A stretch of 64,000 nt of DNA from Octopus vulgaris (lineage: Eukaryota), in NCBI GenBank assembly GCA_951406725.2, contig OX597818.1:108748001-108812000 (forward strand). Direction: 5' to 3'. The translations under genes and the position numbers were made by a program. The notes beneath the pieces are model-generated. The model searched no databases. It was not told the origin of the DNA and worked only from the letters and a program-made list of their open reading frames with translations. Every line of letters begins with the position of its first letter. Position 1 is the stretch's first letter. Of the stretch, positions 10,989-61,316 are shown in pieces.

Positions 10989-11275
10989 CAATTACAGCTT
11001 GGAAGGTGTTTATAAGCCATTTAAAAACACACAAAAACTGTTAGATTCACTTCAACATTTAAATTTAATTTGCCAAAATATTTTTGTCACTTTGAGACCA
11101 CGACCTGTTCACTGACAAAATTCTTAGCTGCATTTCAGAATTTTGTCAGTGAATTTGGTTGTGGTGTCAAAGCGACAAAAATATTTTGACACAAATGAAA
11201 TTTAAATGTTGAAGTGAATCTAACGGGTTTTGTGTGTTTTTGAATGGCTTATAAGCACCTTCCACGCTGCAATTG
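10989..11275. repeat. Fold-back inverted repeat (~135 bp arms) carrying a hammerhead-like motif
   Basis: caattacagcttggaaggtg...actgacaaaattc is mirrored by gaattttgtcagt...caccttccacgctgcaattg. Confidence 0.9.
11069..11120 (-). ncRNA. Degenerate minimal type-I hammerhead, G3-C8 core variant
   Basis: UUUUGUCA GUGAACA G GUCGU ggucucaaa GUGAC AAAA AUA UUU UGGCAAA: stems I and II pair, stem III is palindromic, and GAAA has become AAAA. Confidence 0.55.
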
Positions 11276-12650
11276 TCTTCCTTCCAGCACACGATCTCAG
11301 ATCAGGTCACTTGCTATGCAAGTACATCTCCGTAAAAATATTTTAATATTTTGAAATTTAATCTGCACATCATCTCCATTGCATGTTTGTCTGCTTTCTT
11401 AATATTTACACACAGACATGAATTTAGCCCCTATTTAATGCGTTCAAATTGATTTAACCTTTGAATAATGGTCCAGAATGTCGTGCTATCAGTTGAACTG
11501 AAGTCTAATTACAATAATGCTTCAAAACTGATGGTGGAAACGGTGAAGAACAGAGATTTATCGAACATGGAGTAAAGCTATGATTTCACTTCACAAATGA
11601 CAATGAATAAGAGAAAATAGAATGCCCCCTCCCCCAGCTGATATAAAATCTAACAATTAACTAAAGATTGAATTTACCAGAGAAGTGTTGCCAAAGTCAT
11701 TGCTGTCTCTAATTGGAAGAAGCTGTAGAAATTTCCTCAGGGCAGAGACTCATACACCAGCAGAAAAAAGATCAAACCCATGAATAATGCATAATGAATC
11801 AACAAGCAAAAGATTGCATTGATAACTTCCCCCACTTTCTAATAGCACATATTAACAATTATTTAAAGTATAATCACTTGACAAGAAATGTGTCTTGTAT
11901 CTAGAAACCCATCGGTTTTATTTTTATCACAAAATCAAACTGTGTAAAGGATAGGGAAGCTATTCCATGACTAAATATTTGACTTGTTCTGCCAGAACTG
12001 TCGCCATACTGTCTGAATGATTTCTTCTCTATCTGTTGTGGATTTATGGAAGAAAAGCATGTAAACGTTTGTAAGCTTCATTAAATTGTTTCTGTCTCAC
12101 AATGAAGGCCTTTCTCTTGCACTAAGTCTCCAGCTGATAGAAGACATCAGAGAAAGGGTATTGATGAAGGAAAGGAGAGTAGAGGAAGAATTCAAAATGA
12201 GTGGAACATTAAATATTAAAGCAGAGAAAGCAACTTGTCGAATATAGGAAGGTTTGTTTAAAAAAACAGGAAAAGAATTGAAAATAAAAAAAAAAGACTG
12301 ATAAAACAGTTAATTATTCAAAGAATGGAAATATTAAGCCTCTAAAAATGTTAATTTCTTCAAGACCAGTGATAAGCGAGTTGATTATAGTTATTTGATA
12401 TGATTCTAGTACACACTGGTACTTCTCTCGACACCTCTTTCCTTTGGCAATGACCAGGCCAAGCAGAGCCGGAAGGGATGGATGAGCCAGCTGATATAGA
12501 CCTATGGTTTTGAGAGAATCTTTTCTTACCAGTTGGAAACAAAAGAAGAATCTTTAATAGAAAATTACCATTTTCAGAAATAGTTCTAATTCTTTAATTA
12601 TGTTTCATCAAAGTACACCATATATATATGTATATATGCAGAAGTATATA

Positions 12651-12792
12651 TTCAGGGTGTTGTGAATAAACTGTCATCTAAATTACGCAAAAGTGAAAAT
12701 AACACTGACATCTCATTTTAACAGATATATAACCAAAATTACATAAAGATATCTTGAAATACTAAAGAGTAAATTTTTTCAATAAAATCGCT
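12651..12792 (+). mobile_element. Possible Tc1/mariner terminal fragment
   Basis: Begins cagggtg directly after a TA-rich run; no partner TIR identified. Confidence 0.3.
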
Positions 12793-12813
12793 GTGTGTGT
12801 GTGCATGCAGAGG

Positions 12814-13130
12814 TATATTATTACAAATTTGGGATTTTACCAATAGAACAACAACACCTGTTTCAGGATAACCTTATTGTATGGAACACACATAGAAAGT
12901 TATATCCAATAAAATAATATAAGCAGTTAAAAAAACCTACAATAAAACTATTTGAAAATAATGTTATATATATTTTCAAATAATTTTACTGTATGTTATA
13001 GTAGGTTTTTTTTTTAACTGCTTATATTATTTTATTGGATATAACTTTCTATGTGTATTCCATACAATAAGGTTATCCTGAAATAGGAGTTGTGGTTCTA
13101 TTGGTAAAATCCCAAATTTGTAATAATATT
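12814..13130. repeat. Long inverted repeat (~145 bp arms, short spacer)
   Basis: atattattacaaatttgggattttaccaatagaac...tttgaaaata is mirrored by tattttcaaa...gttctattggtaaaatcccaaatttgtaataatat. Confidence 0.92.
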
Positions 13131-13342
13131 ATAAATGATACTGTTTACATTGCATTAGCAAAGTGTAAAATAGTAAATGTCCTGATAACCTGGAATACTT
13201 ATAATTCCCTAAGATTTTAAAAATATGTAGAGGTATATATATATGCTTAAATCCTTAAAAGTGTTTTAGCCCGAATATATATGTATGTGTATGTGTGCGA
13301 GTAGAGGTATATAACACATTTTATGAAATGGTACCTATAGGT

Positions 13343-13590
13343 ACAGGGGTGGTTGTGTGGTAAGAAGTTTGCTTCTCAACCACATGGTGTGTGAGTGCTT
13401 GAGAACCGGTGTTGGTGTGTTTATGTCCCCATAACTCAGCAGTTCAACAAAAGAGCCTGATAGAATAAGTACCAGTCATAAAAATAAAACAAAAATTAGC
13501 ACTGGGTGTCAATTCATTCAATAAAACATTTCACAAGTCAGTGCTCCAGCATGCCCACAATCTAATGATTGAAACATGTCAAAGATATAA
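13343..13590 (+). mobile_element. SINE family A (tRNA-derived head ggcgtggctgtgtggtaagaagcttgcttcccaaccacatggtt), internally deleted
   Basis: More than 15 related copies in the window, with A-box/B-box-like heads. Confidence 0.8.
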
Positions 13591-13814
13591 AAAAAAGTAC
13601 GCTAGAAATAATGGAAGTGTTTTTCTTTTATTTTGATATATATCTGAAAGTTTAATATATATATATATATTTTTTTTAAAAATATAATTGTATATACCTC
13701 TACACACACACGTCTCATTTGTGTTTGTCTTAGAAGAAAAGTATAACTGAACAGATTTCTATTGCAGCATGCATTGTTGTACGAGATATTTAATTAAAAC
13801 TGTTTTATTACCAG

Positions 13815-14492
13815 CCAGGACCACCTGACTGGCTTCCATGCTGGTGGCACATAAAAAGCACTATCCAAACATGACCAATGCCAGTGCCCCCTAACTGGCT
13901 CCATGCTGGTGGCACATAAAAAGCACTATCCAAACATGACCAATGCCAGTGCCCCCTAACTGACTCCATGCTGGTGGCACATAAAAAGCACTATCCAAAC
14001 GTGACCAATGCCAGTGCCCCCTAACTGGCTCCCATGCTGGTGGCACATAAAAAGCACTATCCAAAGTGACCAATGCCAGTGCCCCCTAACTGGCTCCCAT
14101 GCTGGTGGCACGTAAAAAAGCACTATCTGAACAAGATCAATGCCAGCGCCCCACTGACTGACTCCTATGCTGGTGGTATGGTAAGAAGTACTATCCAAAT
14201 GTGATCAATGCCAGCACCCACGCTGACTAGCTCCCATGCTGGAGACACGTAAAAAAGCACTACACAAACGTGATCAATGCCAGGCCTACCTGACTGACAC
14301 CCATGATGGTGGCACATAAAAAGCACCCACTACACTCTTGGAGCGGTTGGTGTTAGGAAGGACATCCAACTGTAGAAACATTGCCAGATCAGATTGGAGC
14401 CTGGTGCAGCCGCTGGCTCTCCGGACCTCAGTCAAACCATCCAACCCATGCCAGCATTGAAAACGGACGTTAAATGATGATGATGGTGATGA
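13815..14492 (+). repeat. SINE family C with an internal ~65 bp unit amplified about 8 times
   Basis: Units start at ~13831, 13897, 13962, 14027, 14092, 14160, 14229 and 14296, followed by a normal family C 3' end and (GAT)n tail. Confidence 0.9.
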
Positions 14493-15039
14493 TAAACTTA
14501 TCATTTAAGTAGCAGACATATGTTTTACCTAAGATGCAAAAAACAGTAAGCTCTGAGCATGCGTGTATGAATGTATGTGTGTGTGTGTGTATACTTGCCT
14601 GCATACATACAGAGACGAATGCACACTAAACGTGGATACATAAAAAGTAGTGAATAATAGAATGGCAAGTAGGTGTAGCACAACTAGTGTTGTGACAAAG
14701 GAAATGTAATTTAAAGAACAAAATAAATTTATGTTTCAATGATTCCTAAAAATTGACTTTTGAACAATTTTTTTTTACATCATATTTCAAGCAGAAATAC
14801 AATTTTCTTTTTGTGAATCATTAAGCCAAATAAATCTAAATAACTTAATTGATAAAGATAAAATTAAGAGAGATAACAGGAAAACCTGATCTAGATAATT
14901 TGTGGAAAAAATCCAATTTTCGTTTTTTTTTAATATCTTCAGTGATAAATGATGAGATCTGTGTGACATACTGAGTAAGTGGAGTCATCCTTGTACACTT
15001 TGAATAATCAATTATATATGTGTGGTGGTGGTGGTGGTG

Positions 15040-15530
15040 CAATGGTGTGGTAAGACCTTTGTTTCCCAACCACATAGTTCCTGGTTCAGTCTCCTACAGT
15101 GTAGCATCTTCGGCAAGTGTTTCCTACTATAGCCCAGGGCTGACTAAACCCATAAGGGTGCATTTGGCAGATAGAAATACAAACCTGTCATAGGTGCAGG
15201 AGTGGCTGTGTGGTAAGAAGCTTGCTTCCCAACCACATTGTCCTGAGTTCAGTCCCACTGCATGGCACCTTGGGTTGACCAAAGCCTTGTGTGTGGATTT
15301 GGTAGACAGAAACTGAAAGAAGCCCATTGAATATGTGTCTGTGTTTGTCCCTACCACCGTCACTTCATGATCAATGTTGGTGTGTTTACCTCTCTGTAAC
15401 TTAGTTCGGCAAAAGAAACTGATAGAATAAGTACTAGGCTTACAAAGTATAAGTCCTGGGGTCAATTTGTTCGACTAAAGGCGGTGTTCCAGCATGGCCG
15501 CAGTCAAACGACTGAAACACGTAAAAGAAT
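15040..15530 (+). mobile_element. Two adjacent SINE family A copies
   Basis: Heads at ~15043 and ~15198; tail ...cagcatggccgcagtcaaacgactgaaacacgtaaaaga. Confidence 0.85.
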
Positions 15531-15812
15531 ATATATATCCATATCCATGTATATCAATGTGTGTGTGTGTGTACATGCATGTTACTATGTCTGTACCTGA
15601 CATTGCATGATACCTGGAAATGGATGTCACCATCATGCAATAATCTGTGGAAAGATGCTTAGTGATGGGACAATATTACCTTAGATGGAAACAGGAGACG
15701 GTTGGCAACAGGAAGGCCACCCTCCCTTACAAAATCTACTCAAATAATAAATTGTCTCAGCCATGCAAGCATAGAGAAGGGGATGTTATGACACTGATGA
15801 TGATGATGATTG

Positions 15813-16440
15813 TTTTTTGTACTTTCTGCTTTTTCCTATTGTCATTTCTCTCAATCTGCACTTATTTCTGTGTTCCTTTCTGTCGAAGAGCATAGGCTCA
15901 AAATGTAAAAGACTTTCTCACTTCCCTAGCGTTAAACTTTTACATCTGTTTGTTGTTTACACACCCACTTTTGTCTTTTGTTTTTTTTTTGTAAATTCTC
16001 ACTATATATTACACACTCACATGGTCAGTTTTATTCTGTCTCCACCACATAACACTTCGGACTTTTCTTGGACTTTTCTACTAGGATTCTCTACCTGGAC
16101 TTTCTTCTACTCACCTACACTCGGACTCCTACACTTTGGCTGCACCTCTCCTACCCATGGAAAACACTTGAACTCTACCTTTGATGAGAAATCTCTCCAT
16201 TACACCACGATGTTCAAACCTTTTGAACTTTTCTAAACTTTTTTGTATTTCTGCTTTTTCCTATTGTCGTTTCTGTCAATCCGCACTTATTTCTGTTTTC
16301 CTTTCTGTTGAAGAGCATAGGCTCAAAACATAAAGGACTTTCTCACTTCCTGAGCGTTAAACTAATACATCTGTTTGTTGTTTACACACCCGTCTTTGTC
16401 TTTTGTTTTTTTTTTTTTTTTTGCAAATTCTCACTATGTA
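15813..16440 (+). mobile_element. Two ~195 bp direct repeats (425 bp period), each with a decayed hammerhead-like motif; Penelope pLTR- or retrozyme-like
   Basis: 15813-16005 matches 16240-16437; motif ctttctgt(c/t)gaagagcataggctc at 15876 and 16301. Confidence 0.75.
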
Positions 16441-16694
16441 TGTGTATGTAATGTAAAATTGAGAAATTGTAGTGATGAGTGGAGAAAAAAAGAGAACATT
16501 TTGGATATTGCCCTTCTTATGAAAAGCTGAAAGGAGAGAAATTAACGAGAGCTCTCCTTTCATGGTGGCACTCTCTCCAAAACATAATCCACTCCTCATG
16601 CCATGTTCACTTTACTCTTTTTATCAATTTCACCACATACTATAAAGTCTTACTGATGTAAACCAACACCAGCCTCTTAGGATTATGTTTAATC

Positions 16695-16695
16695 A

Positions 16696-16760
<65 letters not shown>
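16695..16760. repeat. (TA)n microsatellite
   Basis: Visible directly. Confidence 0.95.
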
Positions 16761-16761
16761 T

Positions 16762-17410
16762 GTATAGGGTGTTTGGGCTAAATTCCATGAATTTTTGTGT
16801 CTCCTTTTTTCAGGAGCAGCTTTGTGCATTGCTGAAGAGTCAATGGCATTAAATATGATAAAGATTAAAGCTGCAGTTAAAAAAAAAGTTAGCTGACATG
16901 GAGGATAGGAAGGGATCTGAACACTGGGAAAGTGTTACTTGTATCATGATGGTTCATGCTGGGTATCAAAATACCAACATTGTGTCTTCTGATGCTCAAT
17001 GCTCTGTAAACACTGGAAAGGCAGTAAGACTTGATATGGAAGCTGCAATGGAGGCTATGAAGCTCTGGTCAGCAGGAAGGGACACAGCAGGCATTTTGAC
17101 TGTGTCCACTCACTGGAATTCATTCCATCCCCACATTTTTGATGACTAATGTAAATCTGCTGGAGACTATGGTTAAATCCTGGTTGGAGCAGGTTGCTGC
17201 TGGAAGGCCATATGTGTGGCAGCAGGATTCGGCTTCTTGCCATAATTCCGGAAAGAATCAGAAGTGGCTGTTGGATTATTTCTATGACTTCACCAGACCC
17301 AGTTTCTAGCTTCCCAGTTCCCCTCGATTCTAATGCCAAAGATGTGTGGGTTTTAATGGCAGCAAAAATACCTAACTGCAAACCAAGGCTTCAACAATAT
17401 GTATTTGTCT
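16762..17410 (+). mobile_element. Tc1/mariner-superfamily (maT/DD37D-like) transposase remnant
   Basis: From 17151: VNLLETMVKSWLEQVAAGRPYVWQQDSASCHNSGKNQKWLLDYFYDFTRPSF*LPSSP (QQD.A..H and WPP.SPD motifs); N-terminal fragment at 16898; internally deleted. Confidence 0.85.
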
Positions 17411-17499
17411 AACCTTTGACAACATGATAAAAAAAATAAACAAACAGAAGAAACAAATATGAATGACTGTGCATGCATAATATATTAAACAACAATAAC

Positions 17500-18450
17500 A
17501 ACGACCAGAAATGGGGGCTCTGATCTGTGCTGCCCAAGAACATGCATTAAAAACTAATTACATCAATTACAGAACAGAAAACACATCAGAAAGAGATAAG
17601 TGCAGAATTTGTGGACAAAATGGTGAAACTGTATGGCATATTACCAGTCAATGTATGCCACTAGCCCAGAAGGAATATAAGAGATGTCATGACAATATAG
17701 CAAGGATTGTCCATTGGACACTTTGCAACAAGTATGGACTTGACAGAGCAAAAAAGTGGTACGAACATAAGCCTGAAAGCATCATTGAAAATGATAATGC
17801 AAAGATCCTATGGGATTTTGTGATTGAATGCGACCATGAGATAGAGAATATGAAACCAGACATAGTGTTAATTGAGAAAGAAAACGAATGATGCTAGATC
17901 ATAGATATAGCATGCCCAGCTGACGACAAGGTATGCGATAAGGAAGAAAGTCAAGAGTTATGACAAGTTAGCTTGGAAAGTTAAGCAGTTATGGTCGATG
18001 AAAAAGGTGGTAGTAGTACCAATAATTGTTGGAGCCCTGGGAACAGCGAGTAAAAATCTTGAGAAGTACATGGAACAAATACAGGCTGCAATAAGGGTGG
18101 AGCACTTGCAAAACACAGCACTGCTTGGAACCAATCAAATACACGAAAAATAAGGGGTGTTACCCTAATTCACTGACACCATAACACAGCTGACACCATA
18201 ACACATCTCCAGCATTAGAATCTGTGCAAAAACAAAATAATAATTATAACAATAATAATAATAGGGGCTGCAATAAAGGTGGAGCACTTTCAGAAAACAG
18301 TACTGCTTAGAACTGCTTGAATACACCAGATGGTGCTTGGAAAATAAGGGGTGTTACCCTAATTCACTGGTAGTGAACAGCTGACACCGTAGTACATCCC
18401 CAGCATTAGAAGCTGTGCAAAGACAATAAAATAATAATAATAATAATAAT
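17500..18450 (+). mobile_element. 5'-truncated R4/Dong-clade non-LTR retrotransposon (CCHC knuckle plus RLE endonuclease) with a duplicated 3' end
   Basis: CRICGQNGETVWHITSQC, KRCHDNIARIVHW, ILWDF..CDHEIENMKPDIV, IIDIACP; ends in (TAA)n at ~18237 and ~18430. Confidence 0.92.
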
Positions 18451-18665
18451 CCTTTCTACTATAGTCACAAGGCCTGAAACTTTGGGAGAGAGGGCTAAAT
18501 AGATTGCATTGACCCCAATATTCAGCTGGTACTCATTTCATCAACCCTGCAAGGATGAAGGCAAAATTGATCTTGGTAGGATTTGAACTCAGAATGTAAA
18601 GACAGATGAAATGCTGCAAAGCATTTTGCCTGGCATGCTAACGATTCTGGCAGCTCACTGCAGCC
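18450..18665 (-). mobile_element. SINE family B
   Basis: Family B sequence flanked by (TAA)n. Confidence 0.8.
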
Positions 18666-18669
18666 GTAA

Positions 18670-19064
18670 TAATAATAATTAATTCTTTTCATTGGCCACA
18701 AAGACTGACACACATGATTAGAAAACATAAAGGGACAAAACCGGACGAAAGGGTTTTGTCTGTTTGTGAAAAAATCGTGTAAAAACAGTGTAACAATCAA
18801 ATAATATAACAACGAAAAACTCCCAACAGGGGGAGGCATTATGAAAGGTTCCTGGTGGAAAAAACCCATAAAAGCCAACGGGAGCCTGGTCAAACGGGAG
18901 GGGGGGTAGAGAGCCCCTTTCTCCTTTTATAATACCTTTTTCAATTACAGGCAAAACCTGAGAATTGGTCCATTTATACTGGCCATTCTTGCACAATTCA
19001 CCCTACTTTCAGAAAACTTGCTATCAGATAGCACTCTCCTTTCTAACCTCATCTTCCTTTTCAA
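18670..19064 (-). mobile_element. Tx1/L1-like LINE, ORF2 C-terminus and 3' UTR
   Basis: LKRKMRLERRVLSDSKFSESRVNCARMASINGPILRFCL* then a UTR ending ccaatgaaaagaa-(TTA)n; recognised from resemblance only. Confidence 0.6.
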
Positions 19065-19217
19065 TAATAATAATAATAATAATAACAACAACAACAATCC
19101 TTTCTACTAAAGGCACAAGGCCCGGATTTTGTGGGAGGGACTAGTCGATTACGTTGAGCTCAGTATTTGACTGGTACTTAATTTATTGACCCCAAAAGGA
19201 TGAAAGGCACAGGTGAC

Positions 19218-19990
19218 ACTTGTGGAAAGGGCATTCCTCAAATATCACCGGATACCTGTTACCAGCCATAGTGAAAAAATCTGGGAAGACCAGATTTCTT
19301 GTGGTTGATTGGGTCCACAGGGTCAAAACAGCTTTTAGCCCAACCCAATCATTCAGCAGCAACATTTTCACATTTAGCAGCTTGGATCTGCTGCCAAGGG
19401 CTGGCTCGCAAACCTGCAAGCCTCCTTATGGGTGTCAAACAGCAGCCACACCATTGCATATTTAGCACCCCTAGAAATAAATCTTATGGTTGGCAGATAC
19501 TCTGCCAACTCTTCTATTTCTATTTTTTTGAAGATGGCGATGGTGTTGAGTGACTTCAAATATGTCCCCAACACCACTGTCCTCTCCCCAAAGTCTTTCA
19601 CCCTCTCTTTGGATGGGACAATCTCCCACTCCAAAACAGTGCCCACTTTCTTCGCCATGTTTAGAAGAAAAGTTCAACAAGTCCAAAAAAGGGAAGAAGG
19701 AAAGAAGACAGTTCAAAAACACAGTGAACATGATTCCGGCTAACTGGTTCTCCACTTGTAATCCAGGGACACAGCAACACAGCTCCACAAATTTCACCAA
19801 AAATTGGTGAAGAAAAATTCCACAAATTTTTGGAGGTTGGATATGCCTCCAAAACAACACTCTTCTCTCAGCTAAGTGAGACACTTGGTGCAACTACGGG
19901 CAGAGAAATGCCTGGAATCCAGTAGGGATTTCTCATTCGAAACAACAAAGCCCACTAGATCCCTAAAAACAAATGCCTTATAGTTGCACT
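19218..19990 (-). mobile_element. Tx1/L1-like LINE ORF1 remnant
   Basis: Frameshifted ERTVVLGTYLKSLNTIAIF..LAEYLPTIRFISRGAKYAMV and FPDFFTMAGNRYPVIFEECPFHKC; same strand as the ORF2 tail. Confidence 0.55.
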
Positions 19991-22167: not shown

Positions 22168-22278
22168 CTTCAAAATATGTTGTGTCTGTCTCGTCACTTG
22201 GTTGTGGTTGGAAGGGAGCAGGTTGTTCAAGGAGTTTCTCCCAAGCCACATTCTCAAAAATCTTCATGTTTTTAACAC
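22168..22278 (-). CDS. MASTL: Greatwall/MASTL kinase, penultimate coding exon (AGC C-terminal region): VKNMKIFENVAWEKLLEQPAPFQPQPSDETDTTYFE
   Basis: ttgcag acceptor and AAG|gtgag donor; 111 nt, phase 1-1; closely matches human [31 protein letters not shown]. Confidence 0.93.
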
Positions 22279-22865: not shown

Positions 22866-22894
22866 CAATAACACAAGTTAATCCAAATATGAGG

Positions 22895-23220
22895 CACAGG
22901 CGTGGTTGTGTGGTAAGAAGCTTGCTTCCCACCCACATGGTTCTGGGTTCTCTCTCACTGCATGGCACCTTGGGTAAGCGTCTCCTGCCATAGCCTCAGG
23001 CAGGCCAAAGCCTTGCAAATGGATTTGGTAGACGGAAACTGAAAGAAGCCCCCAACGTGTGTGTGTGTGTGTGTGTTTGTCCACCACCACTTGACAACTG
23101 GTGTTAGAATCTTGAAAAAACAACAAAAAAAAGTCCTGGGGGTTAATTTGTTTGACTAAAAATTCTTCAAGGTGGTGCCCCAGCATGGCCAGTCGAATGA
23201 CTGAAACAAGTAAAAGACGG
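22895..23220 (+). mobile_element. SINE family A
   Basis: tRNA-like head, internal (TG)n and family tail. Confidence 0.85.
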
Positions 23221-30989: not shown

Positions 30990-32470
30990 ATAGAAATGGT
31001 AAGACAACAAAAGAATGAAAGAGACCTTGATATTATGTAAATAGAGGAATTTATCTGTAAATATACTATGTGACAATTATTCGGTAGCCATAAAGAGAAT
31101 GGCACATTAAGTAATGTATTCCTAGATAGCCCTAAAAAAAGATCAACCAAGGCCAGGTTCAACAATCACACCTTGAGCTTCAGGCACTGGGATAAAAGGA
31201 AAACGACCAAATTATCCAGTCATATATGGTCCCTAAAAGAAAAGGGTGTCAACTATAACATCCTTTGGAAGATCTTAGTCAAGTGTAAGCCCTACACCAA
31301 CAGCAGTGGAAAGTGCGGTCTTTGTGATATGGAAAGATGGCTCATCTAGAAAAACAGCTTAGACCGCACTACATGTCTGAATTCAAGAACTGAACTTTTC
31401 GGGTCATGACCATACGTGGCTAAATTTTTGTTACGTTTTTGGTCCCGCTAAGATTACAGATAGGACTTGCTTTCTATACTGTGTCCACGTACAAGCTTTT
31501 CATCTCTATATACTTTTTACTTAGATTTCTTATATATTTTTTATATATATTTATAGAGATATTGTTTTATAGGTTTATTGCTCATATATTTTTTACACAT
31601 TTTTTTCTGTATTCTACCTTCCACCCTGCATTTTCCCTGTGCATATATAGATGTGTATATGGAATCCTTTGTGCGTGCATGTAGATGTGTGCATATATGT
31701 GCATATATAGACATGTGTGTGTGCGTGCATGTGAGTATGTGCGTATATAGACGTATTTTACTATTATTGCTTATTTTTACACATTTTTCTGTATTTTGCC
31801 TTAAGCTTTGTTTTTTTTTCTTGTGCATGTGTGTCTATAGACGTGCATATGAATCTTTTTTTGTGCACGTGTGTGTGAGTATATAGATATGTGTGTGTGT
31901 GTGTATGCATACGGGTATGTGTGTATATGGGTGTGTTTTATTCTTATTGCTTATTTTTTTATACATGTTTACACATTTTTCTGTATTTTGCCTTTAGCCC
32001 TGTTTTTTCTTGTGCATGTGTGTATATAGACGTCTGCATGGACCTTTTTTGAGCATGTGTGTGTGTGTGTGCAAACATGTATGCGGGTATGTATATTTTT
32101 TGGCGAATGTGTGGATGAGCATGTGTGTTTCAAGTGAGGGTGGATGAGAATATACATATAGGTGCATGTATGTGGGCGTGCGGGTGTGCATGTATAGCTA
32201 TGGACATGCACGCTTACGCGAATACTATGAACATTTATACTCTCTTACCTTTACGCCCACCCTTCACTTAGCGATGATTCTAATAGCTCTTTTGTCTTAA
32301 TAACGGTCAATCACACAGTAATTTCCCTTTGTTTAACAGTCATTTTCATAGCATTTTTTCGATGGCCGGATAACTGAAGAGATGGCGGTGTGGGTTTCCG
32401 CCCCGACATCCGAAACTCGGAGTTTTATCATGGCTACCGAATAATTGTCACATATTATATTTACAAATAT
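30990..32470 (+). mobile_element. Truncated Penelope-like element: inverted terminal piece, GIY-YIG endonuclease C-terminal half (31149-31451), repeat-rich 3' UTR and hammerhead
   Basis: KARFNNHTLSFRHWDKRKTTKLSSHIWSLKEKGVNYNILWKILVKCKPYTNSSGKCGLCDMERWLI*...LNSRTELFGS*PYVAKFLL; ~31056-31091 is the reverse complement of ~32430-32465. Confidence 0.88.
32363..32436 (+). ncRNA. Type-I hammerhead ribozyme motif in the Penelope terminal repeat
   Basis: UGGCCG-GAUAA CUGAAGA GAUG-GCGG..CCGC..CAUC C GAAAC UCGGA GUU UUAUC-A-UGGCUA. Confidence 0.8.
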
Positions 32471-32954: not shown

Positions 32955-33105
32955 CATCTCTCTATTTCCACATGTTCCTTTCTGTCGAAGAGTGTAGGCT
33001 CAAAACATAAAAGACTTTCTCACTTTACCGAACGTCAAACTAATACACCTGCTTGTTGTTTATACACCTGTCTTTGTCTTTTTTTTTCCTGCAAATTTCA
33101 ACTAT
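32955..33105 (+). mobile_element. Copy of the CUGUCGA hammerhead-like repeat family
   Basis: Matches the 15876, 16301 and 48383 copies; core decayed. Confidence 0.7.
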
Positions 33106-38579: not shown

Positions 38580-38623
38580 ACACAACATTTCAGCTGACAA
38601 ACCCTCCAGCCTTCATCAGGTGT
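38580..38623 (-). ncRNA. Minimal hammerhead motif (same family as 60895/61221), within repeat 38530-38660
   Basis: ACAC CUGAUGA A GGCUG gaggguuugu CAGCU GAAAU GUU GUGU. Confidence 0.7.
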
Positions 38624-43324: not shown

Positions 43325-43705
43325 TCAGGCATGGCTGTGTGGTAAGGAGCTTGCTTACCAACCACATGGTCCCACTGCGTGGCACCTTGGGCAAGTGTCT
43401 TCTACTATACCCTCGGGCCAACCAAAGCCTTGTGAGTGGATTTGGTAGACGGAAACTGAAAGAAGCCCATCATATATATATACATATGTATATGTTTGTG
43501 CGTCTGTGTTTGTCTCCCCCACCATCACTTGACAACTGATGCTGGTGTGTTTACATCCCCGTAACTTAGCAATTCAGTAACAGAGACTGATAGAATAAGT
43601 ACTAGGCTTACAGAGAATAAGTCCTGGAGTTGATTTGCTCCACTAAAGGCAGTGCTCCAGCATGGCTGGAGTCAAAATGACTGCAACATGTAAAAGAATA
43701 AAAGA
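43325..43705 (+). mobile_element. SINE family A
   Basis: Family sequence. Confidence 0.85.
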
Positions 43706-43720
43706 ATATATATTTTCAAA

Positions 43721-43877
43721 GCACCGGTGATGGTGCCACGTAAAAGGCACTGGTGATGGTGCCATGTAAAAAGCACTGGTGATTGTGCCACGTAAAAGGC
43801 ACTGGTGATGGTGCCACATAAAAAGCACTGGCGATTGTGCCATGTAAAAGGCACTGGTGATGGTGCCACATAAAAAA
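43721..43877 (+). repeat. 26 bp x6 minisatellite inside a family C-related SINE
   Basis: gcactggtgatggtgccacgtaaaag at 43721, 43747, 43773, 43799, 43825 and 43851. Confidence 0.92.
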
Positions 43878-44227
43878 CCCCCCAATACACTCTGTGGTGT
43901 GGTTGGTATTAGAAAGGGCATCCAGCCATAGAAACAGACAATAGAACCAGGTACGGCTCCTGACCTTGCTAGCAGGGAAAACAGATATTAAATGAAGATG
44001 ATGTGTTCTTTACAAACTTTGTCCTTAGTGAGGGTGTGCATGGTTTGTTTCTCTTAAAGTAAATGTAGAGCATTGGGACAAACATGGTTGAGAAATACTG
44101 TTCTAGATACTCTTCAACCAATTCATATAAAGTGAAGACAGATAACATTTACTTGGTAAAGCAACAACCCTGAATAATCAGGGTTATTAGAGGGGGTTTT
44201 GATAACAGAGCATATATTTGGGACTAA

Positions 44228-46802: not shown

Positions 46803-47008
46803 TTCTGTTGTGTCTGGGGAGAGGCATTTTCTTTTTGTGCCTTATAATATAAAACACTCACCGGTAAAATTTCCACTTTTTTCTTATTTTTATTTTCCTA
46901 AAATTTTCGTTGAGTCTTGCAACCTTTTCAATAGTGGAAATTTTACTGGTGAGTATGTTATATTATAAGGCACAAAAAGAAAATGACTCTCCCCAGACAC
47001 AACAGAAT
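46803..47008. repeat. Fold-back repeat (75 bp arms) with a hammerhead-like motif in the loop
   Basis: 46803-46877 is the reverse complement of 46933-47007. Confidence 0.88.
46898..46934 (-). ncRNA. Minimal hammerhead motif, U3-A8 core variant
   Basis: CUA UUGAAAA G GUUG caagacu CAAC GAAA A UUU UAG. Confidence 0.55.
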
Positions 47009-47084
47009 AGGCTTCAACACACGAACTCATCTAAAGAATCTTGCAAACCAAATCCAAAAACGAAATGTGGATGTGTGTTTTTTA

Positions 47085-47529: not shown

Positions 47530-47913
47530 TATTAGACAAAAACAGATAACTAAGCCAAGGCTGTGAGGAGTTTCCAGGACATTTATAAAGAAAGAAATAT
47601 AGTCTTACAGCTGTTTCTGGGATATTGTGGATATCCTTTCATCAGAGATAATATGAGTGAGGTAAATGATTGAGTTCAAAATAAGGAATTATTATGGAAA
47701 AGGAGGAGATAGGGAAAATAGAGAAAAATAAGAGAATGAAAATAGAAATAACATATAAAATATTGTAGATGCAGTTCCATTCTTCATGTAAAGTGGTGTA
47801 AAAAAGTGGTAAAATGGTTTCCCGTACATGGTAAGTTCCAATAGTAGTTTGTGTTTAGTCATTTCAAAGTATAGAACCATGGATTTAACTTCCATACTGC
47901 CTAATATTGTCCA

Positions 47914-47973: not shown

Positions 47974-48028
<55 letters not shown>

Positions 48029-48065: not shown

Positions 48066-48114
<49 letters not shown>

Positions 48115-48382: not shown

Positions 48383-48418
48383 CTTTCTGTCGAAGAGCAT
48401 AGGTTCGAAACGTAAAAG
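48383..48418 (+). ncRNA. Minimal hammerhead-like motif with A6U core (CUGUCGA), best copy of the family; element spans ~48175-48510
   Basis: CUUU CUGUCGA A GAGC auag GUUC GAAAC GUA AAAG. Confidence 0.6.
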
Positions 48419-48760: not shown

Positions 48761-48761
48761 T

Positions 48762-50159: not shown

Positions 50160-50196
<37 letters not shown>

Positions 50197-50249
50197 AACT
50201 CTTGTAGCAAATGACAGACGTATACAGATTATGAGTTTATATATATATT

Positions 50250-50605: not shown

Positions 50606-50740
50606 TCTCTCTCTCTCTCTCTATATATATAAAGTTAATCCAAACAAGAAAACACAAAAAAACAAAAAAACACAACAACGCGAGGACGTGGAACAAATAA
50701 AGTATTATTGGACGCTCAAGGAAAGAAGGGAAGAAGGAGG

Positions 50741-50775
50741 GTTTAACGTTTCGAGCGGAGCTCTTCGTCGGAAAC
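50741..50775 (-). ncRNA. Minimal type-I hammerhead, U4C core (CCGACGA), all stems intact; element spans ~50630-50830
   Basis: GUUU CCGACGA A GAGC ucc GCUC GAAAC GUU AAAC. Confidence 0.75.
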
Positions 50776-53227: not shown

Positions 53228-53820
53228 ATCATCGTCATCGTTTAACGTCCGTTTTCCATGCTGGCATGGGTTGGATAGCTCGACAGGGGTCTGGGAAAGC
53301 AGGAGGCTGCACCAGGCTCCAGTCTGATCTTACAGTGTTTCTACAACTGGATGCCCTTCCTAATGCCAACCACGCCAAGAGTGTAGTGGGTGCTTTTTAT
53401 GTGCCATTGGCACAGGAACCAGAGGAGGCTGGCAACGACCACAATCGGTTGGTGCTTTTTACGTGCCACCAGCATGGAAGCCAGTCAAGGCGGCGCTGGC
53501 ATCAGCCACATTCGAACAGTGCTTTCCTGGCACAGGGATCACAACTACAATTTTCCATTTGATTTTGATGCCGGTGGCACGTAAAAAGCACCATCCGATC
53601 GTGGCCGTTTACCAGCCTCGTCTGGCACCTGTGCCGGTGGCACGTAAAAAGCACCCACTACACTCATGGAGTGTTTGGCATTAGGAAGGGCATCCAGTCG
53701 TAGAAACATTGCCAGATCAGACTGGGCCTGGTGCAGCCTTCTGGCTTCCCAGACCCCAGTTGCACCGTCCAACCCATGCCAGCATGGAAACCAGATGCTA
53801 AACGATGATGATGATGATGT
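53228..53820. mobile_element. Divergently oriented pair of SINE family C copies
   Basis: Minus copy 53228-53565 and plus copy 53565-53820, with tails pointing outward. Confidence 0.88.
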
Positions 53821-55139
53821 ACTTGACTCAATAGGTCTCCTCAAGCATGGCATGTCACCCTACTTTTGAGTGGGTTGGTTATGCAGCATTGGAGTAGGTT
53901 ACTGCTGTGAACTCACTTTATTTGCCAGGTCTTCTCAGTCACAGCATATCTCCAGAGGCCTTGGTCTCTTATGATATTCAAATATGTGTGTGTATGTGTG
54001 TTGGTGTGGATTAACATTTTTATGTCTGAATTTTGACTTCATTAATGCTTGTCTCACATTAACAAAATTAATCTCATAAAGTTAAATAATTCTACAATAA
54101 CCAAACTAAACACTACAAAACACTCTCGTGAGTTTTCATAAGTAACAACTTTTCAAAAAAAAAAAAGCAATAATTTATATGATGGTTAGTTTAATTAAAG
54201 CACTAGAATAAAAATGAATTGCTTAGAGGCACAACAAAATTTGAATTATGGAAACTGATCAAAAATATGAAAAAGAAGGAGGAATATATTATGAAGCTTC
54301 CTCAGATATCTTATCTAGAAAGATATATAAAATTTCCAAATGAAATTTTGAGATTTTAATTTTGAATTAAAAGTATATAAATTTAGAACTGTTTAAAAAT
54401 GTTGCTGAAATTTTCTTATAAGTCTGAAAGAGAAACTTAAATGGTAAACGTAAGAACTTGATATGAAAATTATCAAGTGAATCAGTTTACAAGTTTGCAA
54501 TTCCATGATGGGACAATAACTGTAAATTCGAACAGGATTAGTTGTGTGATATCTGCATTGCTTTTGTGAGATTCTTTTATCAGAGGTGTTAACTAAAGAT
54601 GTCAACGAATGCAGCATGCACAGAAAAACACACGATTTAAGTTATAAAATAAATTATTATGATTTACTCAATCTTTTCCTTTCTTTGCTGTCTTTTTCAC
54701 CACATTTTAAATAACTATAAAAGAAGCGTGTGTGTGTGTGTGTCTGTATATTGCACGCCCACGAATCAAAGTAAAATTAGAGACACAGACCAATAGAAAT
54801 GTAATGTGTTGGTAGGATTAACAAAGATATTTATATAATACAATAGTGATTTCTTACATAACTCTCTTTCTAAAAGAATGTAAAATTTGAGTCAACAACA
54901 TGATTTGTCACATAAAAAGCAGAGGGATCAGACCCAGTTGTGTGGTGGTGAAGCAAGCGTCATAACCACAGAACCATGCTTATATCTGTTATTTAATGGT
55001 TAGCATTCTTTTAAGGACATTTTGTAAGGCTGATGGTCATTTAATATTTAACACATGCACTGAATGTGGAGGGATTAAAAATAAAGGGAAAATAGCAACA
55101 CTTGAAGAATTATGAAACGCGTGATAAAAAATTAAACAA

Positions 55140-55950
55140 GGTGTTTGTGTGGCTTTGTGGTAAAAAGCTTGCTTCCCAACCACATGGTTCTGGGTTCAGA
55201 CACACTGTGTGGCACCTTGGGCATTTGTCTTCAACAATAACTTCAGGCCAACCAAAGCTTTGTGAGTATATTTGGCAGATGGAAACTGAAAGAAGCCTGT
55301 CGTATGTGTGTCTGTGTTTGTCCTCCACTACTGCTTGACGACCGGTGTTAGTGTGTTTATGCCCCCATAACTTAGCAGTTTGGCAAAGGAGACTAAAAGA
55401 ATCAGGCTTAAAAAAAGTGCTGGGAATATATACCTGAGATGTATATTGTAAGGAGTCAGAAGCCTTCCACACTCACGGCTACTCTGTAGTTTTCTAAGAA
55501 ACCCTAAGAGTAAGAACAGAGTGCAAAACTGAATCAAAAGTGTGCTCCAGGTTAATAGAAGAAGTTAGGTGGAGTGGCTCAGCCCTAGCTAAGTACTTTT
55601 TCAGGGCCTCACTAAGAAGAGGGTATCAGCGGTATCATCATCATCGTTTAACGTCCGCTTTCCATGCTAGCATGGGCTGGACGATTTTGACTGAATGCTG
55701 GCAAACCAGATGGCTGCACCAGGCTCCAATCTTGATCTGGCAGAGGTTCTACAGCTGGATGCCCTTCCTAAAGCCAATCACTCTGAGAGTGTAGTGGGTG
55801 CTTTTTACGTGCCACCGGCACGGGGGCCAGTCAGGCGGTACTGGCAATGACCTCGCCCAAATCTTTTTACACATGCCACCGGCACAGGTGCCAGTAAGGT
55901 GGCGCTGGTAACAATCACACTTGAATGGTGCTCTTTAATGTGCCACTGGC
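55140..55950. mobile_element. SINE A (+) 55140-55430 and SINE C (-) 55635-55950
   Basis: Family sequences. Confidence 0.8.
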
Positions 55951-56555
55951 ACGTCTGGAATAAACTCAAACTTCATCTCATTTCGGTTAATTCTCCCTCT
56001 AATCAGTTGTGCTATTACTCCTTCAGAAACTATAACCATTGATATAAATCTGAGTAGAAGTGTGTGTGTGTGTGTGTGTGTGTGTGTCAGTGACTATTGA
56101 CTGAGAGAGTGTCATGGTTGAAGGAAGGGTTTCTCAGTGTGGCTGTCAGCATTAAGTTTAAGTAAACAGCTCGTTATTGTAAGAAAGAAAAAAATGTTGA
56201 CCAAGATGTATTGAAAGTAAGCAAAATAACAAACAAGATGCACCTTCAGAAAGAGCCAGCATTCTATTGTGAATGGATTAGAAGCATTACTAAATGAATT
56301 ACAATCTCCTATTGTTCACAGCATGTTTCTATAGTTTTTCGCAGTATCGTACGGCAAAGCTGCACAATGGAACTGAGTGCAACAAAAAGCAGGAAGGATT
56401 GATCAAGATGCAAAATGCTTGTTACTTGATAGGGTAAAAACATTGAAGGGTTATCGAATCTGTTCATTTCACAGGCTCTAATAATGAAAACAGGAATCAC
56501 ACAGCAAGAAAACAAGAAAACAAAGTGCTAAACAATATTGAAAATAAAACAATTT

Positions 56556-56559
<4 letters not shown>

Positions 56560-56594
<35 letters not shown>

Positions 56595-56621
56595 CATATT
56601 TACATATGTTCATATTAAATT

Positions 56622-56690
<69 letters not shown>
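56560..56690. repeat. (CA)n, (TG)n and (GA)n microsatellites
   Basis: Visible directly. Confidence 0.95.
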
Positions 56691-56695
<5 letters not shown>

Positions 56696-58103
56696 CATTA
56701 AATACAACACCTTGTGGGGATTTATTGTCACTATATTGTGAGTTCAAATCCTACTCTGATTCATTGTGCACTTTGTCTTTTCAACAGAATATGAACTGGA
56801 ACAGTGCCCCAGCATGACCACAATCCAATTACTGAGACTACCAAAAGAAAAAAAAAAGAGAGAAACCCCTCTTGTTCTCACACATAACCATACATATGCA
56901 CACAAATATTTAAATATACTTGTATGTATGTATATAAATATCTACAGCTCAGGTGAATTGCACTTTTCCTCATACAGTTTCTTATATCATCATAGTGCAC
57001 AGAGGCATATACTGCCGTCCTTAAAGTTAAAATGTGTAATTAATTTCATAGATATCTGTCAGCATTTTCTGAATATTACAGAATGTCTTATAAGGCTTCT
57101 CTGAAATACTATGACAAGTACAGATTGATACAGTGAAAGTTTAAAGATTTCAATCATAACTTTCAGTGTCATTACCATGCTTTCTTTCATTGATTTAGGT
57201 TTCAAACAAATACAATTTCCATACAACAAAGTGGGGCTTCATTCACTTAATACTCACAACAAATGAATAAATACCTAACGACATATGTATGAGTTGGCAT
57301 ATGTTAAATCTATCTAAATGCAGACCTCCACCACATACAGAATCTTAGCTTGGTAATGATCCCCAATTACAACATTATTATATACGGCTCTACATCTTAG
57401 AGTGTACTTCTTTTGGATTTATGCATTCTACAAATTATATCTATCTATCTATCTACAACAACAACCACCAGCACCAGCACCAGCACCACCACCATCATCA
57501 TCATCCCTAAGCATCTCAACTATCTCTCCATACATACCTTTAATAGTGCCATCAGTGATTGTGCCAGCTCTGAGGTTGTAGAACTGGGAAGAAGGTTGGG
57601 GGAACTTTTCAGCTTCTGGAAAGGTAAAGATCTTTGGGGCTGCATGCTTGGAGGCTGTGAGTCCTTCTGCTTAGGTAGAGAACTATTACAATCACATTTT
57701 CAATTTCCTATGTCTAGGGGCTGTACATATTTGTTTTTATGTTCACTTACAATAAAACAATTTTATATAAATCTGGAGTTGTTCTACACTTTTGTAGCAT
57801 ATAAATTTATAAGTCTTAAAGAAGGATAGTATTGATAGTGACACTGAAAGGATTAAATCCAATAAAACTGAAAATATCTAAAACAACTGACACATCTTGT
57901 ACCTACCGAATACAAAAGGACACACCTCAATAAGCACACTTGTTTACAAAGTTCTATATACAGGGGGAAATTCTAATTTAATAAAACTTTCTCCAAAGCA
58001 TTTCTCCATAACAACCAACCCTGAAACCTAATTACCACTCTACTCAAACCCACACACCTGAGCAACAGGGACTGTAGAAAGCCAAGATTAACTTCAATAC
58101 ATT

Positions 58104-58148
58104 GCAGTCCGATGATGGCTTAGCCAGCCGAAACTTTGAAGTCACTGT
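58104..58148 (+). ncRNA. Type-I hammerhead motif, U4C core, GUC site
   Basis: GCAGU CCGAUGA U GGCU uagcc AGCC GAAAC UUUGAA GUC ACUGU. Confidence 0.75.
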
Positions 58149-58171
58149 CAAGAATATTTTAGTTTAAGAAT

Positions 58172-58452
58172 AATGTATGTATGTATGCAAGTATGTATCT
58201 ATGTATGTATGTATGCATGAATGTATGCAAGTATGTATGTATGTATGTATGTGTACATGAGAATCATTCCTGGATCTTATATGTGTATATATATATATGT
58301 TTAAGAATAATGTATGTATGTATGCAAGTATGTATGTATGTATGTATGTATGTATGTATGTATGTATGCATGCATGCATGCATGCATGTATGTATGTATG
58401 TATGTATGTATGTATGTATGTATGTATGTATGTATGTATGTATGTATGTGTG
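58172..58452. repeat. (ATGT)n tetranucleotide microsatellite
   Basis: Visible directly; gtttaagaataatgtatg is duplicated at ~58162 and ~58299. Confidence 0.95.
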
Positions 58453-60841
58453 TGTGCATTTATAGCTATTTATAGGCATTTATGCATAGACACAGAAGAG
58501 CATTGATGTTTGTTCATTGATTATTTTCAAAGAAAACTATTTAATATTGAAGATGAAACTAAGATGGTTAATCTATACATGTGTATTTTTGCAAGTAGGC
58601 TGTCCATGTGGTGATACAGTCGGTTACATACATTCACAATGTGTGATACAGATGTGATACAATCAGTTACATATATTTACATATTCTTGGGATTTGGTCA
58701 TCTGAAATAGTTAACATCATTTATCTGTAATATCTTCATCATTTTCTGGCATGAACTAGAATGTAGGTAATGAAGTGGAGGCAACAGATGGTATTTCCGG
58801 GAATTTGGCACAAATGAAGGAAAAGGACTCAGTGATGCAACAGTGCCAATATTAAATATTGGCAGTGACAACCAATGTTGCAAATTAAGAAATGATGCTA
58901 ACAGTATTTCTTATTCCACTAACAACATTAGAAGACTTATAAAGAAGCCAGCTACTGGCCCCTTTCTTCTTAATTATTGCAAATAAATTTTCATTTCATT
59001 TTAGAGTTGGGAGTAGGCAATATCCAGCAAAGAGCTACCACTAAGATTAGACTTTCCAAATCATAAGTCTTTTATATAAAGGCATGGCTATGCATAAAGA
59101 AACTTGCTTCTCAATCATGTAGTCTTGGGTTCAGTCCCACTGTGTGGTACCTTGGGCAAGTATCTTCAATTATAGCTCAGAGTCAATTAAAGCCTTGTAA
59201 GTGGATTTGGGAGATGGAAACTTAAAGAAGCCTACCACACACACATCTTTGTTTTTGTCTTTGGTTTGCAAGATCCTTTATGTGAATTAAAGTGTTGAAA
59301 GGGATTTCACTGTTTTTTGGGAGGGTCATTACACCAATGAAAATGACTGCATGTTTATTATTATTTGCATAATGACTCCCCCAAGACACACCAAATTATG
59401 AATGTATATACGTGCATGTATGTATATGTGTGTATGAATGTCATTTGTTTGCAGTCCACTAAGAAAGTATGTTCAGGATGTTTGTTGTTTAACAGTGTGG
59501 GAAATGATCTCACTTGGAAACAAGTTGGGGCTGGCGCCAGAAAGGGCATCTAGCCATAGAAAACTCTGCCCCAGCATTCTTTCCTTGATCGGACAGTATC
59601 ATCATCATCATCATCTTAATGCTTACTTTTCTATGCTCTCATGGCCAGAATATTTCACTTGCTTTCTCCTAAATGAGCTTCATGAGTGAAGTCCTGCTTT
59701 TCATTACAGAGCAGCAAAACAAACTGTATTGTTATTGGAATCTTTGATGGGTTCACAGAAGGTCTTCTAGGGTTTTTTTTTTCTATTGATGATGACCTTT
59801 TTTGTTTTTAATTTCTTCCTTCAGAAAGAAGTTATATATTCCAATAGTTACGTTTAATTCTTTATTTGCATGAGACTCACTTGAGATAAAATATTATTCT
59901 TTTCATAAGTATTGTTGATATTTAACCACATAGAAGCTCAGATCAAGCAAGCTGATAACTGAAAACGTTCTATGACAATATTTTCCCCTGGGCACTAGAT
60001 ATAAGCATAGGTGTGTAGTTGGGAAGTTTGCTTCACAATCACATGGTTCTGAGATTAATACCACTTTGTGCCATTTAGTGTGAGCGCCTTGCAATATAAC
60101 CTCTAGCTGACCACTACCTTGTGAGTTGAATTTGTTAAGAGAATTGTCTATGGTGGTGGGTGTAATAATTGGCAAGGTGGCAGCCAACAAATCAGTATCA
60201 TCAACATTTGACATCTGTTTTCCATGCTGGCATGGATCGAACAGTTTGACAGGAGTGGGCAAGCCAGAGGGCTACACCAGACTCCAGTTGTTCATTTTGG
60301 CATGGATTCTATGGCTGGATGCCTTTCCTCATGCCACCCACTTTACAGAGTGTACAGGGTGCCTTTTATGTGGCACCAGCACTGGTGATTTTCACAAATT
60401 TAGCTTGTAATATTTAGTCTGCCAAATTACTTCCTTCATGTAGACTTAGCTATTGGATAAGTAGAGATTGATAAAATAAGTACCAGACAACAAAGTGGGG
60501 TCAATAATGTAGACTAAAACCATTTCTGAAGGCTTCTTGAGAAGATTACAGTGAACAGCAACCACTATACAGTTGCTCAGGTAGCAAGACACAACATCCA
60601 GGTAAAAATGGGAAGGCTAGCTGTATTATATCTTTCTTTAATGGATCGTGGTCAGAATTTCCATTCAATAATTTTCATTTGTTTATTGACCTGAACTACC
60701 TTCTTTACTGAATATACAGGTACATGTACCCTTAATGTAAATTCTTAGGTAGAGGTAGAGAGAGCATGACACAGAGAGATTACAAGTAGAGGGTAATCAT
60801 TGGGTTCCTGCACACCAATCAATATTTAAGAGATGAGGAAT

Positions 60842-60991
60842 TATTTACATTATTTACATTTGACTGATATTTGCCCTCATCTTGTTTATTGTTAACATAA
60901 CGTTTCGGCTGATATACCCTCCAGCCTTCATCAGGTGTCTTGGGGAAATTTCGAACCTGTGTTCTCATTCCTCAGGTATTTTTCTATGTTG

Positions 60992-61039
<48 letters not shown>

Positions 61040-61316
61040 TCACTGCCTGGAATTGAACTCAGACAAATAGTGTGATTATGGTGGTTAAGAGCACAGGCTA
61101 CTAACCCCAAGATTCCGAGTTTGATTCCAGGCAGTGACCTGAATAATAATAATAATAATTATTATTATAACATAGAAAAATACCGTAGGAATGAGAACCC
61201 AGGTTCAAAATTTCCCCAAGACACCTGATGAATGCTGGAGGGTATATCAGCCGAAATGTTGTGTTAACAACAAACAAGATGAGGACAAATATCTGTCAAA
61301 TGTAAACGATGTACAA
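60842..61316. mobile_element. Fold-back element (~205 bp arms): tRNA-like head, (AAT)n and hammerhead tail, with an inverted partial copy
   Basis: Arms 60842-61051 and 61112-61316; hammerheads at 60895-60938 (-) and 61221-61264 (+); tRNA-like segment 61070-61140. Confidence 0.85.

Follow-up and report, generated by a model that had tools for sequence, protein, structure and literature searches.

The 64-kb stretch of octopus DNA analysed here (the window) carries minimal type-I hammerhead motifs from eight families, all of them high-copy. Every one of the 13 heptamer cores in a preliminary description of this DNA, which spoke of about eight repeat families, was found at its listed position and strand, and these copies plus a 14th, more decayed one are the whole yield of the family profiles. 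Family H is represented by a fold-back (about 11005-11300): one arm is a hammerhead at 11069..11119 (-; core at 11112, of the G3-C8 type, GUGAACA, with G12 lost to give AAAA) whose young parent element is L350, and the second, new to the list, is the 14th copy at 11142..11194 (+; end approximate; core at 11149, decayed to GUGAAUU, again with AAAA). Family B supplies four copies on the forward strand: a partial tandem, 425 bases apart, at 15876..15911 (core 15880, CUGUCGA, the A6U type) and 16301..16336 (core 16305, CUGUUGA), a third at 32978..33013 (core 32982, CUGUCGA), these three having lost G12, and an intact one at 48383..48418 (core 48387, the A6U core CUGUCGA). Family A has a copy at 38580..38623 (-; core 38619, canonical, with the stem III palindrome decayed to ATGT) and two more that form a head-to-head pair, the left arm at 60895..60938 (-; core 60934, intact, with one stem I change) and the right arm at 61221..61264 (+; core 61225, with changes in stems II and III); between them, at 61037..61141 (+), lies a tRNA-like head with A-box- and B-box-like stretches and a partial inverted copy, at the fold-back centre and followed by (AAT)n. 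The remaining families have one copy each. Those of C at 50741..50775 (-; core 50771, U4C type, CCGACGA), D at 58105..58147 (+; core 58109, U4C type, CCGAUGA, with a 10-nt stem III palindrome), E at 32369..32429 (+; core 32374, canonical CUGAAGA, with a long stem II and an imperfect stem III palindrome) and F at 47603..47648 (-; core 47645, canonical, palindrome ACAGCUGU) are intact, and that of G at 46898..46934 (-; core 46931), inside a fold-back insertion (about 46803-47060), has an intact U3-A8 core, UUGAAAA, and one stem II mismatch. The layout said to be common to the 13 copies is complete in only 7 of them under a lenient rule and in 5 under strict descriptors. AAAA replaces GAAA in four (11112, 15880, 16305 and 32982), which is CpG decay of G12, and ATGT replaces the palindrome ACGT in 38619 and 61225.

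At the level of families the layout does stand. The majority sequences of all eight restore the minimal type-I fold, with stems I and II closed, a U16.1-H17 junction, and G5, A9, GAAA and U16.1 retained. With the stems set by the analyst on those sequences, 72 of 72 stem pairs hold across the eight families, against a mean of 41.5 and a maximum of 55 in 20,000 permutations; the cores do covary, as had been proposed, the covariation being one between families. G10.1-C11.1 is present in every family, and both a perfect stem III palindrome and an extra base after A9 in seven, the exception in each case being E. The Watson-Crick pair expected between core positions 3 and 8 is likewise found in 8/8 majority sequences. 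H copies carry it as G3-C8 (63 of 65) and G copies as U3-A8 (55 of 57), the pair having been exchanged, not lost, between these sister elements, and the same exchange separates the sister tandem repeats L260 and L039. Canonical U4 and A6 are kept in A, E, F, G and H; C and D have C4, and B has U6, seen in 74 of its 75 copies and in one outside record. Across those 75 copies N7 is C in 34, U in 24, G in 10 and A in 7, and position 17 is A in 55, U in 17, C in 2 and G in 1. Decay was ruled out as the origin of the CCGA cores, the CCG, CCA and CTG forms of family D fitting a CpG master. Family C is young (top matches 95-99% identical) and shares 82% identity with B across 34 bases around the motif, and D is old (matches 74-86% identical). 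A stem-loop preceding the G core was considered as stem I of a type III hammerhead and rejected, since no UH precedes it. Self-duplexes of AAUU (+2.2 kcal/mol) and AAUAUU (-0.2 kcal/mol) are predicted to be weak for a dimer.

Mobilisation by Penelope-like elements, which the preliminary description had extended to the whole set, can be upheld for B, G and H, with link counts that include loci chosen through targeted searches. For family B the element is L222, in which 1,200-bp direct repeats, 99.75% identical and each with CUGUUGA, surround a 930-aa frame with RVT_1 above the cut-off and GIY-YIG below it. Between RT and nuclease this frame has the CX2-5CxxC linker motif that marks the Neptune clade (PMC8557442); such a linker is present in Nematis too. 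For family H it is L350, with an inverted truncated copy and 1,118-bp repeats 98.4% identical, GUGAACA being present in all three. The L350 frame has RT (YVDD) and GIY-YIG motifs, drew no Pfam match, and gives a 447-aa alignment with the protein of L222 (21% identity, E 6e-8). B and H sit, in short, in both end repeats of young Penelope-like elements with RT and GIY-YIG. Family G lies downstream of a GIY-YIG frame that is sister to that of H: in 5 of 30 long G copies the same strand holds a frame, seen in its C-terminal part, that shares 40-55% identity with the frame of H, and in L368 GIY-YIG scores above the Pfam cut-off. Inverted truncated copies and tails are known from Penelope-like elements (PMC8557442), and the hallmarks of EN+ elements, namely end repeats with the motif, inverted truncated copies and microsatellite flanks, are found across L222, L350 and the G fold-backs, with end repeats seen for B and H and fold-backs for G. 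L201 proved to be a 2.4-kb local duplication and was discarded as an element. Just before H and G runs a branch-like CTAAC followed by pyrimidines and AG, a stretch resembling a 3′ splice site. Such a site could explain clustered 5′ ends, and microhomology fold-back could explain the palindromes too.

For the other five families no tied frame was found in small samples of 33-59 copies each, a same-strand upstream Penelope frame being present in 1 of 59 copies of A, 1 of 50 of C, 0 of 38 of D, 1 of 40 of E and 0 of 33 of F. The upstream frame of C, like two cases that lie downstream, is part of another element; the Penelope frames beside C, D and E copies (L384-L386) are those of other, neighbouring elements. 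These five families probably derive from Penelope elements, as short or non-autonomous forms. In family A the hammerhead body follows 35 of 38 tRNA-like heads (27/29 targeted, 8/9 untargeted), and relaxed ARAGORN calls tRNAs in 7 of 25 loci of this family; at default it makes no call in the window. Both orientations are present in 16 of 24 family A loci, dispersed and head-to-head, and no element that might supply RT was found as a partner in 59 copies. Schistosoma SINE-like hammerhead repeats and non-LTR retrozymes are non-coding type I carriers (PMC6765202, PMC7229834, bioRxiv 10.64898/2026.07.22.740005) that share with family A a promoter followed by a hammerhead, and family A differs from them in its dispersed head-to-head rather than tandem copies and in a motif of the minimal kind. 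The eight families do not show the head-to-tail tandem arrangement of a non-LTR retrozyme: of 40 copies found in genome samples taken at even spacing and 600 kb in total, 2 lie within 1.5 kb of a partner on the same strand; L260, a separate family, does have head-to-tail tandem hammerhead units, as the Schistosoma repeats and retrozymes do.

Minimal hammerheads in metazoan Penelope-like elements, with low dimer activity and several families per genome, are already in print (Cervera and de la Pena 2014, PMC4209133). The octopus families have in common with those motifs the type I topology, a stem I of 3-7 bp, G10.1-C11.1, a palindromic stem III and, in seven of eight, the extra base after A9, together with a position in both end repeats, a predominance of solo copies, the occurrence of opposite-strand pairs and many families per genome. 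The U3-A8 variant of family G has a counterpart there in Schistosoma; the 56 motifs aligned in Fig. S3 of that paper, whose descriptor fixed the core, include none from a cephalopod and none with a C4, U6 or G3-C8 core. Natural U3-A8 covariation, A6C in a phage (<0.1 per min) and U4C in a viroid were described by Perreault et al. 2011 (PMC3088659) as rare single examples outside Penelope elements, and the accessible part of that paper makes no mention of A6U or of natural G3-C8. Another related system is PAc Poseidon of Anolis (PMC11167929), where RT starts internally on an uncut template and cleavage is protein-assisted; as here, the end-repeat hammerhead lies near the frame start, and insertion ends stem, probably in the octopus too, from internal RT starts. 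Engineered C3G/G8C is partly active in PAc Poseidon (PMC11167929), and octopus family H, as read from sequence, has G3-C8 naturally. The kind of motif is thus already known, and it is the variant cores that are the apparently new part. Leaving aside Lunse, Weinberg and Breaker 2017, which to go by its title reportedly deals with small Penelope hammerhead variants cleaving as dimers, the literature searched holds no report of family-fixed A6U, G3-C8 or U4C for Penelope elements, and that on octopus, on SINEs with hammerheads and on core mutagenesis no report of the octopus families. Because the variant cores occur in young elements whose end repeats are nearly identical, they make it possible to test both whether cutting is required and whether the element protein rescues weak cores.

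The preferred explanation, which we hold with considerable but not full confidence, is that the window motifs are partly decayed copies of eight min-HHR families, of which B, G and H are linked to Penelope elements and the others are likely derivatives, with the following scheme of copying and cutting. The element protein likely reverse-transcribes uncut RNA, starting downstream of the motif; reverse transcription would usually halt early and often fold back, leaving solo or head-to-head stubs, which would then decay, mostly at CpG. Selection on a few active master elements likely keeps the fold, which in such elements would be a weak cutter, acting as a dimer held together by the stem III palindrome or assisted by the element protein. 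On this account the variant cores (U3-A8, G3-C8, U4C and A6U) are master states of families, not copy damage. Against it, in vitro activity falls with A6C and with U4C (PMC3088659, in the part available), so families B, C and D may have next to no cleavage. A bolder and decidedly tentative extension is a relaxed, protein-assisted core, in which young elements would cut with A6U, U4C or G3-C8 cores that fail or work slowly as free RNA, and family A would be a tRNA-headed SINE riding the Penelope machinery. If the relaxed core were real, the sister elements would make up a series of naturally occurring catalytic-core mutants.

The most serious alternative, though one we doubt, is that the fold of the variant families is a protein-binding, promoter or RT signal and no longer a catalyst, A6U and U4C being tolerated for that reason. 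Catalytic mutants leave insertion in vitro unimpaired and RNA-seq reads ending at the cut site are absent (PMC11167929), Naiad elements do well despite lacking canonical hammerheads (PMC8557442), and changes at positions 4 and 6 reduce activity, as the available part of PMC3088659 has it. Copies beginning at the cut site are absent from our data as well: in 430 copies, none of the 21 5′ ends that fall inside or after the motif lies within 3 bases of the cut site, a result that also favours the copying of uncut RNA. However, a mere signal does not account for a 3-8 pair that is swapped and not lost (G against H, L260 against L039), for the retention of G5, A9, GAAA and U16.1 in all majority sequences, or for G17 in a single B copy of 75; together these point to catalytic, and not merely stem, constraints.

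Much less probable is a working host repertoire, in which the scattered copies would cleave transcripts of the host, either in cis or through trans-dimers formed between abundant copies. The sheer number of copies (about 190,000, with 28 of 73 untargeted ones intact) and an exon-like stretch at 22168-22278 (-), which suggests that the window may be intronic, speak for it, as does a slight deficit of core and stem changes relative to flanks in untargeted copies (24 vs 36.4, p=0.03; 46 vs 63.5, p=0.02), which pure neutral decay does not predict. But that deficit is missing from the best-hit set (23 vs 31.7, p=0.13; 58 vs 60.5, p=0.85), and both profile detection and subfamily divergence are confounding factors. 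Moreover, half of the copies in the window are damaged, with CpG sites accounting for most of it; 28 of the 40 sampled copies are solo and 10 have an opposite-strand partner only, which implies long hairpin pairing; and published activity is low even for dimers (PMC4209133). Most genomic copies are likely inert, and a working ribozyme repertoire at the window loci is not supported by these counts, the original observation being in all partly confirmed and its interpretation partly supported.

The strict descriptor finds 5 motifs in the window, compared with an average of 0.05 (maximum 2) over 60 dinucleotide shuffles and none in the reversed window, and a second descriptor finds 16 in the 600 kb of samples against 0-1 per shuffle (n=10) and none in the reversed samples, so the motif frequency is not reproduced by shuffling. 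Chance matches in AT-rich repeats, later amplified by a carrier element, are therefore hardly credible and largely refuted by these controls and the 72/72 pairs, and the end-repeat position shared with published motifs and the existence of further families outside the window argue the same way, even granting that a pattern-seeking reader chose the families, that copies within a family are not independent, and that in G stem I spans just 3 bp and the core is rich in A.

The density of one motif per 5 kb given in the preliminary description is local. The profiles find 14 copies in the 64-kb window and 40 in the 600 kb sampled (P=0.005 for at least 13 copies in six random 10-kb pieces), or 1 per 15 kb, which extrapolates to a profile-based estimate of about 190,000 copies (117,000-271,000), decayed ones included and so not directly comparable with the thousands per genome of PMC4209133. 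Rfam gave no hammerhead among 72 matches in the window (E up to 10) or 142 in L350, L222 and L260 (E up to 1), only microsatellites and hairpins fitting miRNA models. That searches confined to CUGANGA would miss much is borne out, 28 of the 40 sampled copies belonging to families with other cores. With about 70% of sampled copies invisible to CUGANGA descriptors, and every scanned one to Rfam, published hammerhead counts are likely low, and additional families with the identical layout exist beyond the window.

All 13 hammerhead cores claimed in the preliminary description were found where it had placed them, in eight repeat families: A (38619-, 60934- and 61225+), B (15880, 16305, 32982 and 48387), C (50771-), D (58109), E (32374), F (47645-), G (46931-) and H (11112-). 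An additional, decayed copy, the 14th in the window, lies at 11149+. A strict descriptor matched 5 of the 13, with a mean of 0.05 over 60 shuffles and 0 in the reversed sequence. Intactness had been overstated: compared with family majority sequences, which were built from 24 copies outside the window, only 7 of 13 retain the full hammerhead layout, the damage lying at CpG sites (G12, the G of GAAA in the conventional hammerhead numbering, lost in four; the stem III palindrome in two). Genome-wide searches (2.8 Gb, 227 contigs) returned between 724 and 5,111 initial candidates for each family, of which 40 were scored and 25 fetched. All eight majority sequences, including those of the doubtful G and H, restore the full minimal type-I hammerhead, and the count of about eight families stands. 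The claimed covariation is borne out between families, where all 72 counted pairs are standard (partner shuffling: mean 41.5, maximum 55, 20,000 rounds); since the stems in this count were set by eye, the argument against chance rests on the raw-DNA shuffle controls. Within families clear selection was not seen, the best-hit set showing no deficit of changes and the untargeted copies a weak, confounded one.

The core variants are family-wide. Positions 3 and 8 pair as C-G in six families, as U-A in G (55/57 copies) and as G-C in H (63/65), and C4 is found in 37 of 43 family C and 18 of 24 family D copies. Family B has U6 in 74 of 75 copies, with positions 7 and 17 variable; some of the U7 is due to CpG decay. 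At the core of L222, the B parent, contigs carrying two organism labels show the same letters and no others. An outside record (L387:301-329, minus strand, contig MDSQ01015757.1) holds an A6U minimal hammerhead that differs in loop II and in stem I, which is nonetheless paired; upstream it has a TTTGACCTCT stretch in common with the B repeat. Going by this one record (n=1), A6U probably occurs beyond this genome.

The window itself lacks both a long coding frame and any match to Penelope protein. Upstream of B copies, a GIY-YIG fragment led to L222, whose 1,200-bp repeats are 99.75% identical, each with a CUGUUGA motif, and whose frame of 930 aa has RT, a cysteine linker and GIY-YIG. Similarly, a pattern upstream of H (398 matching places, control 0) led to its parent L350, in which an inverted truncated copy accompanies a repeat-frame-repeat unit; all three repeats hold GUGAACA, and the frames are broken by frameshifts. 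For G, the upstream pattern matched 494 places, and 5 of 30 fetched carry a same-strand frame 40-55% identical to that of H; the U-A and G-C 3-8 pairs have therefore been swapped between sister elements. The proposed Penelope link is thus supported for B, H and, through those frames, G; for A, C, D, E and F no such frame could be assigned. The nearest protein relative of one element bears an Octopus vulgaris label in its source, pointing to an octopus as host. Most H stubs begin at an AG-ATG that directly follows a branch-point-like CTAAC with a pyrimidine tract (L350:4696-4725; window about 11120-11135), and G has a similar stretch. The site may represent a 3' splice site, the start of transcription or a point of fold-back.

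Family A (window 60846-61313; L002-L025) is SINE-like, running from a tRNA-like head through (AAT)n and the hammerhead body to an optional tail like that of Penelope insertions. The body follows the head in 35 of 38 heads, and both orientations are present in 16 of 24 loci; the insertions take the form of head-to-head fold-backs whose centre is where the head begins. No partner element was found for this family.

Sixty evenly spaced 10-kb genome pieces yielded 40 copies that cover the core and belong to the eight families (none in reversed sequence), or 1 per 15 kb rather than the 1 per 5 kb first claimed. This extrapolates to about 187,000 copies (bootstrap 117,000-271,000), and the true hammerhead total is higher because other families occur outside the window. 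That CUGANGA-only searches miss much was confirmed, 28 of the 40 belonging to non-CUGANGA families. By arrangement, 28 stand alone; the other 12 have a partner within 1.5 kb, on the opposite strand only in 10 cases and on the same strand in 2. Among untargeted copies, 8 of 11 in G start at most 25 bases, and 12 of 14 in H at most 30 bases, upstream of the core; those of other families start farther upstream. Of 21 ends located in or past the motif, not one fell 3 bases or less from the cut site, a count that short post-cut fragments may escape.

The motif sits in the end repeats, copies are truncated, inverted and decayed, and the variants are states of the master, the active parent element. 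For an Anolis element, an internal RT start, an uncut RNA template and protein-assisted cleavage are described (PMC11167929), and low dimer activity is reported in another paper (PMC4209133). The octopus elements probably work likewise; selection would act on active masters and the stubs would be by-products. We lean modestly towards the view that masters with variant cores are genuine, if weak, ribozymes.

Octopus hammerheads are of an already known kind. Published figures include 235 hits to Rfam hammerheads for the giant squid (PMC6962438), more than 6,000 motifs from 16 families for a coral and as many as 120,000 copies of retrozymes for the axolotl (both PMC7229834). Literature searches gave no report of these octopus families, of A6U or of a natural G3-C8, which are likewise absent from the accessible portions of these and related works (PMC4209133, PMC3088659, bioRxiv 10.64898/2026.07.22.740005, PMC8557442, PMC6765202, PMC3884650, PMC11014351), and subscription papers, Repbase and supplements may contain them. 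The present addition consists of core variants, fixed by family, in young Penelope elements, together with a carrier that has a tRNA-like head.

Two B repeats spaced 425 bases apart (15813-16441) form a partial tandem, the window's sole same-strand pair; both lack G12, and by eye the spacer is like the sequence after the repeat in L222. Several abundant short repeat families (D6-D20) lack hammerheads (e.g., 15190-15348, 22890-23074, 13835-14098 and 43692-43899) and include 26- and 65-base tandem units. An exon-like 111-base stretch with AG/GT borders (22168-22278, minus strand) encodes a 36-aa peptide that resembles a MAST-like AGC-kinase C-terminus and has no Pfam match; the window may thus be intronic.

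Outside the window, ~359-base tandem units, each with a minimal hammerhead, form two head-to-head, retrozyme-like arrays (L260:2200-4600 and L039:827-1187); the L260 units are CUGACGA and the sister L039 units UUGAUAA, the 3-8 pair being swapped between these close relatives. A UUGAUAA hammerhead lacking the extra base is carried by a very young Penelope-like family absent from the window (L236-L259), which has many 781-aa open frames. Further families contribute single minimal hammerheads with canonical cores at L241:3015 (minus strand), L233:2377, L070:1176, L170:2168 and L300:913 (minus strand).
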